From the IMG/VR virus record IMGVR_UViG_3300035088_000014, positions 5,389 to 69,388 of that record: 64,000 bases of DNA. One strand, given 5' to 3'. The stretch comes from a virus. The position numbers and the translations under genes were made by a program. Of this stretch, positions 62,494 to 63,923 are shown piece after piece (the stretch's first letter is position 1; each line of letters begins with the position of its first letter). The notes under the pieces are model-generated. The model was not told where the DNA came from. It did no database searches and was given only the letters and a program-made list of their open reading frames with translations.

Positions 62494-62670
62494 ATGAAAT
62501 CTACATTAGGAAAAATTTATCTCACTCTCGCCGGGATAGTGTTCACCGCAACCCTTGCAGCAGCGTACAATCATCAATCGCGCCAGGTAGCCACACTCGG
62601 CCCAGCAGTAACACCGCAGCAGCTTTGTTGCGGCAATCCAATCTGTCCGCCGATCTGCCCGAAGAAATAG
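62494..62670 (+). CDS. 58-aa secreted Cys/Pro-rich peptide precursor (not in ORF track)
   Basis: GGAG 6 nt before ATG; MKSTLGKIYLTLAGIVFTATLAAA-YNHQSRQVATLGPAVTPQQLCCGNPICPPICPKK. Confidence 0.8.
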   Translation: MKSTLGKIYLTLAGIVFTATLAAAYNHQSRQVATLGPAVTPQQLCCGNPICPPICPKK

Positions 62671-62713
62671 TTTCAGTCTCGATAGGGTCGTGCTTGACGG
62701 GAGGCATGGCCCT

Positions 62714-63475
62714 ATGAATCTCGACTGGTTTCTCTGGATCACGGTTGCACTCGCCCAGGCCGCACTTTCAGTTATCGCTTTTCGCTCCAAGCAAAACACC
62801 GTCTGGTTCCGGCGGTACATCTACTTTGCCACGGCACAAACGCTGCTCCTGATGACAGCGGCCGTGGCCGGTGCGAGCCAGGGTCTATACTTCACAATCT
62901 ATTCATCGTGCGCGATCCTCGGCACTCTTCTCGCCCTGCTGGTCGTCGGCTCATTGTGGCGTCAAACCTTTGGCTCTCCTGCTTCGCTTCCGCCCGGTAC
63001 GCTGACACGATTCCGCACGCTGGTTTTAGCTATCGTCTGCCCGCTGACCGTGGTACTCATTAGTTTCTTCCGCGCGCACTCTGCGCATGCTTACTTCAAC
63101 TCACTTATCAACCTTGAAACCGTGGTTTTAAGCGCCTCCGGCGTCACTCTTGCCCTGATGGTTTTCTATTCAAAGCATCTGGGAATCTCGTGGCGCTCGA
63201 AGCAGGCGGGAATCTTAGGGGGATTCTTGTGGTGCTTTGGAACCAACTGGCTGGCCACTTTTTTGACCGGCCAGGAAATCATATCCATCTACGCCGCCCA
63301 GCGTATAGGGCAGGTGGCGTACTTGATCTCACTCATTGTCTGGGCTCGCGTTCTACTGGAGAAGGAGCGCGACCCGGGGGTTATCGCCGATGAACAACTT
63401 GATCGCGTACTGCACGAATTTGGTCTCGCAGAAATGTTTGGTGCCAGGCTAAGGGTAAGGCCAACTCATACCTAA
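62714..63475 (+). CDS. Seven-TM membrane protein, candidate peptide receptor
   Basis: GGAGG RBS; seven hydrophobic segments, short charged C-tail, no kinase domain. Confidence 0.8.
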   Translation: MNLDWFLWITVALAQAALSVIAFRSKQNTVWFRRYIYFATAQTLLLMTAAVAGASQGLYFTIYSSCAILGTLLALLVVGSLWRQTFGSPASLPPGTLTRFRTLVLAIVCPLTVVLISFFRAHSAHAYFNSLINLETVVLSASGVTLALMVFYSKHLGISWRSKQAGILGGFLWCFGTNWLATFLTGQEIISIYAAQRIGQVAYLISLIVWARVLLEKERDPGVIADEQLDRVLHEFGLAEMFGARLRVRPTHT

Positions 63476-63503
63476 AAAGCCCGAAAGTTTAGATGAGGTT
63501 CCG

Positions 63504-63923
63504 ATGATTCTGGCCATGAACGGCAAAGAACAATTTGTAATGCTACAGCGGTTCGTTGTTGAGCAGGAAAAGATACCAGTGAAGTACCCCGATCTGCTTG
63601 ACCGGAAAGAATGGATGATTTACATGGGGCAAATAAAGCAGAAGTCGAGACTGGCGGTTGAACTTTTAGACAAGCTCGACGACTCACTCACCGATGACAG
63701 CGAGTTGACGTTCCACGTCATTGAAGCCCGGGTCCAGGGTGTGGAAACGCACCGGATGGCCAACAGCCTGTACCTGACCGGGGTATTCAGGAAAGTAACG
63801 TCAATCTCGGCCAAAGGGGAGCGGGTTCGAGCGCAGTATGATATTTTGAGTGAGCTCATAAAACACGTGTTTATGTTGCTCGGAAAGGCGGACTTGATTG
63901 CCCGTATCAGCCGAGCAATGTAA
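63504..63923 (+). CDS. Helical cytoplasmic protein, third gene of the peptide/7TM module
   Basis: GAGG upstream; 28 nt after the 7TM stop; amphipathic helices. Confidence 0.7.
   Translation: MILAMNGKEQFVMLQRFVVEQEKIPVKYPDLLDRKEWMIYMGQIKQKSRLAVELLDKLDDSLTDDSELTFHVIEARVQGVETHRMANSLYLTGVFRKVTSISAKGERVRAQYDILSELIKHVFMLLGKADLIARISRAM

Follow-up and report, generated by a model that had tools for sequence, protein, structure and literature searches.

The window analysed here is a stretch of 64,000 nucleotides, positions 5389-69388 of the 69,388-bp virus record IMGVR_UViG_3300035088_000014, which has direct terminal repeats and represents a temperate soil phage. Near the end of this window lies a 58-residue open reading frame (ORF) for a predicted exported peptide, followed after a 43-nt gap by the gene for a 253-residue orphan protein with seven transmembrane (TM) helices, referred to below as the 7TM protein. 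An initial annotation, made from the letters alone, had described the ORFs, a ribosome-binding site (RBS), a TACAAT hexamer, the 43-nt spacer and the distance to the integrase gene (int) and phage attachment site (attP), all of which we found where it had placed them. It had read the two genes, together with a 139-residue protein encoded next to them, as a ligand, receptor and transducer module that might inform the choice between lysis and lysogeny. The features at the centre of the present analysis are listed here in window coordinates, with counts over the four phage and prophage loci introduced below.

62452-62457, + strand: TACAAT, a -10-like hexamer 5' of the peptide gene (CTACAAT invariant in 4/4 phage or prophage loci)
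62468-62480, + strand: palindrome CCGCAACCTGCGG between the -10-like hexamer and the RBS (CCGCAACC.GCGG invariant in 4/4 loci)
62484-62487, + strand: GGAG, RBS of the peptide gene, 6 nt 5' of its ATG (GGAGCGC invariant in 4/4 loci)
62494-62670, + strand: gene for the 58-residue precursor of a predicted exported peptide (kept in 4/4 loci and in P0018)
62676-62720, + strand: conserved RNA hairpin in the 43-nt spacer, enclosing the RBS and ATG of the 7TM gene (RNAalifold)
62714-63475, + strand: gene for the 253-residue orphan 7TM protein, N-out/C-in, with conserved cytoplasmic loops FGSPASLPPG and YSKHLGISWRSK

The peptide gene, its spacer and the 7TM protein

Three loci related to the window were compared with it, two on virus contigs (L004 and L005) and one at a prophage end in a metagenome-assembled genome (MAG) of Candidatus Angelobacter (L007). 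The small ORF stands at the same place in all four, with indels that keep the frame and a spacer of exactly 43 nt each time, and a fifth copy of the peptide occurs as the called protein P0018. The ratio of non-synonymous to synonymous change (dN/dS) in the peptide frame is 0.26-0.59, and thus below 0.6 in 6/6 pairs. The 58-residue ORF is a real gene under selection, as the initial annotation had supposed when it took it to encode a Cys- and Pro-rich peptide with a Sec-type signal. An overlapping frame of 93 residues (62436-62717, +) covers the peptide gene completely, has its stop in an ATGA at the start codon of the 7TM gene and is also open in 4/4 related loci; its dN/dS of 0.58-1.18 indicates that it is probably non-coding, composition or the gene that it overlaps being the probable reason for its staying open. 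Gene callers mostly miss the small ORF, and just two called proteins matching it were found in 5.8 billion clusters.

Upstream of the gene, the TACAAT hexamer was left unflagged by a consensus promoter scan because its -35 region is poor, and the palindrome that follows could be an operator or a leader hairpin. The precursor begins with a signal-like part (residues 1-24) in which K2, K7 and a hydrophobic stretch are followed by AAA directly before Y25-N26. Signal peptides were called by a rule-based script together with inspection, and the script passes the precursor as Sec-type (basic n-region, h-region free of charge, small -3 and -1 residues), with the caveat that the 17-residue h-region may also be compatible with a signal-anchor reading. 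The predicted mature part has 34 residues, ends in CCGNPICPPICPKK and contains four Cys and six Pro with a net charge of +3. Twelve positions are invariant among the five peptides (Y25, N26, R30, G36, C45, C46, P49, C51, P52, P53, C55 and P56), which share a CC..P.CPP..CP skeleton and differ through in-frame indels in the Cys loops, the first of which has 3 or 4 residues and the second 3 or 5. A conotoxin- or enterotoxin-like CC-x4-C-x3-C framework (62623-62670) was considered and rejected, its spacing not being kept among the relatives.

The 43-nt spacer is structured throughout the family. For the four phage loci, RNAalifold predicts a hairpin of 18 pairs, four of them with compensatory changes, at -26.4 kcal/mol, and against dinucleotide shuffles the stability z-scores of these spacers range from -2.3 to -3.8 (4/4 loci; -3.84 for the window). 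The same holds for 41 loci on bacterial chromosomes, described in the next section, with a mean z of -2.60 and values below -2 in 27/41 (p 6.6e-12). Such a structure may keep the 7TM protein at a lower level than the peptide, or may make its translation depend on ribosomes that finish the peptide gene.

The second gene encodes a protein for which AlphaFold2, run on 80 sequences of the family, gives a model with seven helices, a predicted local distance difference test (pLDDT) score of 89.1 and a predicted template modelling (pTM) score of 0.81; this replaced a poor model (pLDDT 60.7) from 14 sequences. The helices are arranged as in a G-protein-coupled receptor (GPCR), with fold scores that lie under the tool's caution line. 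In Foldseek searches there was no match at E<=1e-3 in the PDB, where Ste2 (7ad3_A) stood in the third row, and the best E-value in BFVD was 0.034. Loops 1, 3 and 5 are richer in Lys and Arg (means of 3.1, 3.0 and 2.6 over the 80 sequences) than loops 2, 4 and 6 (0.65, 1.0 and 0.86), which places the former inside and the latter outside and gives an N-out/C-in topology, with about 38 residues following TM7. This last helix (residues 192-215) lacks Lys and so the residue that would bind retinal, and no Bac_rhodopsin match was obtained.

Conservation is distributed unevenly across the membrane. The inner half of the protein is better conserved than the outer (0.415 vs 0.322, p 2.7e-4) and holds 24 of the 30 most conserved positions, among them the loop motifs FG.P...LP and YS..LGI.WR. 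In the phage clade, TM1-3 (residues 1-81) have a lower identity, 0.55, than residues 82-215, which reach 0.75 (p 1.2e-6). Of the individual segments, inner loop 3 varies least (0.97), and outer loop 1 ranks with those that vary most (0.24). Invariance or near-invariance is confined to five columns, W210, F32, Y59, P93 and G170. These include no His, Cys, Asp, Glu or Ser, and an enzyme is therefore not suggested. A complex prediction for the mature peptide (residues 25-58) with the 7TM protein, run with no controls, scored 0.01 against a mark of 0.32 and speaks neither for nor against binding.

A family of chromosomal pairs in Acidobacteriota

Neither the peptide nor the 7TM protein matched a family above threshold in Pfam, NCBIfam, PHROG or PADLOC, and none of the 80 family members has a Pfam match above threshold. 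More particularly, the 80 members gave no Pfam match to 7TMR-DISM, HlyIII/PAQR, Bax1-I, CPBP/Abi, exosortase or rhomboid families, for which NCBIfam likewise gave no match, and none to HisKA or HATPase. A DUF2678 match was rejected at 19.6 bits against a cut-off of 27.8. PADLOC, applied to nine proteins, gave best E-values of 0.035 and 0.022 at bit scores near 12 and no defence-system match; a tblastn search of 50,697 phage records in GenBank with the 7TM protein gave no match; the best match of the family to solved structures by sequence had an E-value of 0.77; and in the ESM Atlas the 7TM protein met unnamed Acidobacteriota clusters only. The description of this protein in the initial annotation, as having seven TM helices without a kinase or enzyme domain, is supported.

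Relatives were found in two ways. A word-indexed search returned 14 close relatives including the window protein, 55-100% identical and several of them on contigs of 62-71 kb, together with two additional, distant ones. A profile of these 14 phage-type proteins, searched against 1.84 billion cluster representatives, gave at least 150 matches with E<=1e-3, of which 55 reached E<=1e-10; most have a length of about 250 residues. Ten long or outlying members, seven of them with N-terminal extensions, were scanned separately: P0169 carries TPR repeats, P0132 (827 residues, a weak match in several stretches) carries RCC1 and fn3 domains, and the other eight match nothing. The family is present in 45/401 genomes sampled from the phylum of the prophage host, frequently as several divergent copies and with up to six per genome, and the host MAG itself holds the prophage copy and four chromosomal paralogues, one of which matches at E 5.9e-14. 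In a quick IQ-TREE analysis the 14 phage-type proteins form one clade (support 96), nested in a clade with support of 100 that contains a chromosomal paralogue of the host MAG. This nesting inside the host family fits capture of the phage module from the host, as judged from the sequences.

We collected 70 chromosomal loci of 7TM homologues and asked of each whether an ORF of 30-130 residues on the same strand ended no more than 160 nt before the 7TM start and had a Sec-like N-terminus followed by at least four Pro or at least two Cys. Such an ORF precedes 42/69 of the 7TM frames, compared with 11/209 other long ORFs of the same loci and 2/68 antisense regions (Fisher p 1.9e-21 and 2.2e-14, respectively). 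Counted by locus, a peptide gene is present at 42/70, and all 42 look genuine by inspection. By its peptide, its 7TM homology and its structured spacer, the window pair belongs to the same family. The initial annotation had mentioned similar pairs in Acidobacteriota chromosomes, and these prove to be real; the 139-residue protein occurs in the phage group only. On sequence evidence, the peptide and 7TM protein are a previously undescribed two-gene module native to Acidobacteriota chromosomes, and a literature search gave no published description of such a pair in Acidobacteria.

The chromosomal peptides are diverse. At least two Cys are present in 29/42, in most of them bounding a short Pro/Asp/Asn/Gly loop near the C-terminus, and 8/42 are arrays of two to six tandem Pro-rich units, which may be likened to multi-copy peptide precursors. 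In the arrays of L026, L027, L028, L030, L031, L042 and L075, near-identical units of 13-24 residues follow one signal peptide. In a class of 16 peptides, the signal and a C-terminal core, P.P.C.P.DPN.CG, are conserved and the linker between them is variable, which is the pattern of a precursor with a C-terminal active product. Peptide classes track the clades of the 7TM tree, with 18 changes compared with a shuffled mean of 57, although the tree is a quick one and such tracking is expected for linked genes anyway. Tandem 7TM paralogues stand in three loci (L026:2356-3150, L027 and L049) and the peptide genes of L024 and L039 are duplicated, which suggests local duplication and divergence of pairs.

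Further genes accompany some of the pairs. A protein of about 180 residues with one N-terminal TM helix is encoded in 12/70 loci, its start overlapping the 7TM stop in 7/12; an XRE-HTH regulator, whose C-terminal domain we take from its motif to be LexA/CI-like, is nearby in 12/70; and a divergent ORF of about 135-150 residues is found in seven. No Pfam family was matched above threshold by the regulator, the divergent ORF or the ~180-residue protein. Cassettes with such extra genes are those of L020, L021, L028, L031, L042-L046, L048, L050, L052, L061 and L073. In nine loci the pair adjoins the gene for ribosomal protein S1.

Phage setting and downstream genes

The features that surround the pair in the phage genome are the following.

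59200-60516, + strand: gene for a tyrosine integrase (Pfam Phage_integrase, E 8.7e-13), given as context and outside the module
60573-60622, no strand assigned: attachment (att) core, a reverse-complement, incomplete copy of the 3' portion of a tRNA, marked by contig ends from other runs
63504-63923, + strand: gene for the 139-residue soluble protein, 28 nt after the 7TM gene and co-oriented with it, in the phage group only
63898-64000, + strand, continuing at L003:128-576 (ORF L003:25-576): start of the gene for a conserved 183-residue protein, overlapping the end of the 139-residue gene

Contigs from runs X3 and X4 match the window at 60573-60622 only, with unlike flanks on either side, and there is one 48-nt high-depth piece for this core (depth 189; bin depth 2145). 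We read its T-arm motif as part of a tRNA; ARAGORN detected no complete tRNA in either the window or L007. The core precedes the peptide gene by 1.87 kb, and going inwards from the att site the module is the first block to be conserved. The slot between them (window 60700-62400) holds an endonuclease VII gene and a C5 methylase gene here, an N6_N4 methylase gene in L004 (2981-3679) and a D12 methylase gene in L005 (184-1068), and a run X4 contig omits 61305-62378 of the window. In the integrated L007 the slot (3400-3780) is empty, with host genes and a partial tRNA directly before the peptide promoter. The prophage end in this Angelobacter MAG abuts a truncated CHAT-domain gene (L007:2687-3409, -) and the partial tRNA (L007:3530-3590). 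The latter differs from the tRNA of the window's att core, which indicates that related phages use different integration sites, and the att region of the window had no blastn match in L004, L005 or L007. Elsewhere in the window, the structural genes are long ORFs on the plus strand, and the repressor-like genes of the phage lie on the opposite strand.

The record opens with the same 127 bases with which the window closes; the sequence therefore continues at contig position 128 and the 183-residue protein can be followed across this junction. The four genes for the peptide, the 7TM protein and the 139- and 183-residue proteins probably form one operon, given their co-orientation, the overlap of the last two and a 218-nt contig from an RNA library that covers 63383-63598 and so bridges the 7TM and 139-residue genes. 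This library, which may contain DNA and whose contigs do not inform level, strand or absence, has no other contig within 44001-64000.

The 139-residue protein has no hydrophobic segments (maximum 19-residue hydropathy 1.26) and nine relatives, at 58-96% identity and all within the phage group; it matched nothing above threshold in Pfam, NCBIfam, PHROGs or PADLOC and nothing in solved structures or the ESM Atlas. An hhalign comparison of its family with the chromosomal ~180-residue TM-anchored family, in which the target set included one L031 response regulator, gave a probability of 0.6%. With relatives confined to the phage group and no detectable homology to the chromosomal third gene, this protein is best regarded as a phage-specific neighbour outside the conserved module, contrary to the role given to it at first. 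The 183-residue protein is 67-97% identical across the four loci and matched no family library; its best match among solved structures, to a ribosomal protein, had an E-value of 0.043. Its middle part (LPYVGMDVIEAILLLL...) resembles, to our eye, a HARE-type winged helix. Library scans found no TPR, HTH or response-regulator family on the 7TM, 139-residue or 183-residue proteins.

Possible function of the pair

Several properties of the pair are those expected of a ligand and its sensor, namely the variable outer and conserved cytoplasmic sides of the 7TM protein, the repeat precursors, the regulators in chromosomal cassettes and the lack of catalytic residues. We read the phage pair as cognate, an exported peptide whose C-terminal core is under selection and a membrane partner made from the same, presumably internally attenuated transcript, both captured from the host. 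Peptide sensing is a plausible role for it, and we put at about even the chance that the exported peptide acts on its cognate 7TM partner so that a signal is passed inward. In such a scheme, the module would be transcribed, together with the two genes that follow, from its own promoter-like site just inside the att site. The precursor would be exported and cut after AAA, whilst the spacer hairpin would mask the RBS of the 7TM gene and its start codon, giving less 7TM protein than peptide or restricting its synthesis to times when the peptide gene is being translated. The resulting peptide of about 34 residues, presumably constrained by disulfides, would act in the periplasm on TM1-3 and the outer loops, the rapidly evolving outer portion of the 7TM protein, and the conserved cytoplasmic loops would relay its state to a cytoplasmic partner, in peptide sensing of the SdpC-SdpI type. 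What we infer in this scheme is the cleavage, the disulfides and the binding, which way the signal runs, which cytoplasmic partner receives it and whether the phage gains from it.

Amongst described systems, the nearest logic is that of SdpC/SdpI/SdpR in Bacillus subtilis, where an exported peptide acts on polytopic SdpI, which then holds SdpR (PMC2910880). There too an exported peptide is combined with a polytopic membrane protein, and SdpI has separate parts for the peptide and for the cytoplasmic regulator; the 7TM protein similarly has a varying part (TM1-3) and a conserved remainder. The two are nevertheless distinct, as 0/80 family members match the SdpI Pfam models at E<=0.01 and seven helices are present here compared with SdpI's basic six. 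Whereas SdpR is of the ArsR type, the chromosomal cassettes have XRE-HTH regulators (12/70) and the phage operon has none that is recognisable, and, unlike for Sdp, the host is diderm and toxicity is not known for the module.

Other comparisons are looser. Like the arbitrium system (AimP/AimR/AimX), the module has a phage-encoded small precursor with an export signal near lysogeny genes. In Bacillus phages the arbitrium receptor is a TPR/HTH protein of the cytoplasm, and its ligand is shortened and taken back up through Opp, whereas here the partner is a 7TM membrane protein, the operon has no TPR or HTH match and the 7TM family is mainly chromosomal. A small precursor gene beside that of a polytopic membrane protein is also found in the Agr and Com systems (AgrD/AgrC, ComC/ComD), in which peptide and sensor diversify together, but the 7TM protein is only 253 residues long and has no histidine-kinase domain, the operon has no response regulator, and a Sec signal takes the place of a dedicated exporter or AgrB-type processing. 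The initial annotation was right that the layout fits neither scheme, as the scans for TPR and HTH and for HisKA and HATPase came back empty. An analogy can be drawn with yeast prepro-alpha-factor and Ste2, and with peptide-hormone GPCRs generally, in that a signal-peptide precursor, in some members with three to six tandem Pro-rich copies, is coupled with an N-out/C-in 7TM partner of GPCR-like helix arrangement. In this case there is no sequence homology and the fold scores stay under the caution line, and the resemblance may be one of common seven-helix packing; G proteins are not known from bacteria. Finally, MgrB acting on PhoQ is a product of under 60 residues with periplasmic Cys that acts on a larger inner-membrane protein, as is proposed here. 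MgrB-type proteins are membrane-anchored and are not conserved hairpin-coupled pairs, whereas the N-terminus here looks cleavable and 8/42 of the peptides are repeat arrays.

A number of points weigh against peptide sensing. The binding of ligand to receptor rests on inference, and Sec export in a diderm cell would leave the peptide in the periplasm only. The conserved cytoplasmic face of the 7TM protein would fit a transporter or scaffold too, and neither an output domain nor a regulator can be recognised in the phage operon. By the criterion used, 28/70 chromosomal loci have no peptide, these being mostly the weakest 7TM matches, and the support for expression is the single 218-nt RNA-library contig, for which DNA carry-over is possible. 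Taken as a whole, the ligand, receptor and transducer reading of the initial annotation is partly supported.

If the peptide were instead a bacteriocin-like weapon released by lysogens, with the 7TM protein protecting its producer, much of the layout would be accounted for. A small exported Cys peptide beside a polytopic membrane protein is the usual arrangement of a bacteriocin and its immunity protein, and hairpin coupling would link immunity to toxin production. The peptide tail varies between the phage relatives, peptide genes are duplicated at two chromosomal loci with up to six paralogues per genome, and the module sits at a prophage end, a frequent site of accessory genes. SdpI unites immunity with sensing (PMC2910880). 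We nonetheless consider a toxin and its immunity protein unlikely, since a core conserved in 16 genomes and an S1-gene neighbourhood in nine loci are unlike arms-race cargo, many of the peptides are neutral or acidic Pro-rich repeats that are neither amphipathic nor cationic, no outer-membrane exporter was found nearby, and CPBP/Abi, SdpI and other immunity families went unmatched among the 80 members. Another reading is envelope modification or superinfection exclusion, in which the 7TM protein with a small subunit or regulator would alter the inner membrane of the lysogen and block DNA injection by related phages, with no signalling involved. With a promoter-like site of its own, the module forms the first transcription unit from the prophage end inwards; within the last 20 kb the RNA library holds only the junction of the 7TM and 139-residue genes, which is a weak point; and small membrane or periplasmic regulators of larger membrane proteins are common. 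Set against these, the pair has long been established on chromosomes as a family with housekeeping neighbours, often alongside its own XRE-type regulator (12/70) and a TM-anchored partner (12/70), and the h-regions, 12-17 residues long with small residues after them, look cleavable and not anchor-like. We rate such an envelope change as rather improbable.

A role in the phage's own decision, in which peptide would build up among infected cells or lysogens, be sensed by the 7TM protein and be transduced by the 139-residue protein to set lysis against lysogeny, shares every point that favours peptide sensing. In addition, int and attP are close to the module, the genes of two conserved phage proteins (139 and 183 residues) run in the same direction as it, with overlap, and one RNA-library contig joins the 7TM and 139-residue genes. 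However, neither of these two proteins matches a regulator family, the 139-residue protein differs from the conserved third gene of the family, the repressor-like genes lie elsewhere on the other strand with no operator link to the module shown, and chromosomal members of the family are unrelated to phage decisions. Nothing was found that links the module to the lysis-lysogeny choice, and this part of the initial annotation now appears very unlikely. As for the small ORF and 7TM gene being unlinked neighbours, or the small ORF being unexpressed, this would agree with the ORF being mostly missed by gene callers and with the overlapping 93-residue frame also being open in 4/4 loci, but it is close to refuted by an enrichment of pairing of at least 12-fold over controls, by purifying selection on the peptide frame where the overlapping one is near-neutral, and by a spacer conserved in both length and hairpin.

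Returning to peptide sensing, a bolder form of it can be put forward as doubtful but worth stating. Acidobacteria and the phages that captured their genes might use Sec-exported pheromones, either disulfide-looped or multi-copy and Pro-rich, that are sensed by cognate GPCR-shaped 7TM receptors whose variable outer helices set specificity and whose conserved cytoplasmic loops contact a partner inside the cell. The phage copy, expressed from the prophage, would then be a private channel by which lysogens sense one another or an infection, and the whole a membrane-receptor counterpart of arbitrium in a diderm phylum of the soil.

Few soil bacteria are as abundant as the Acidobacteriota, about whose cell-to-cell signalling hardly anything is known. 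The peptides are short enough for synthesis, and cultured Terriglobia probably carry chromosomal pairs. Should the pair be a toxin with its immunity protein or an exclusion device, it would still be a new lysogenic-conversion module. If peptide and 7TM protein are indeed ligand and receptor, they would represent a new receptor class for bacterial peptide communication, and the phage copy would be the first candidate for phage peptide sensing outside Firmicutes.

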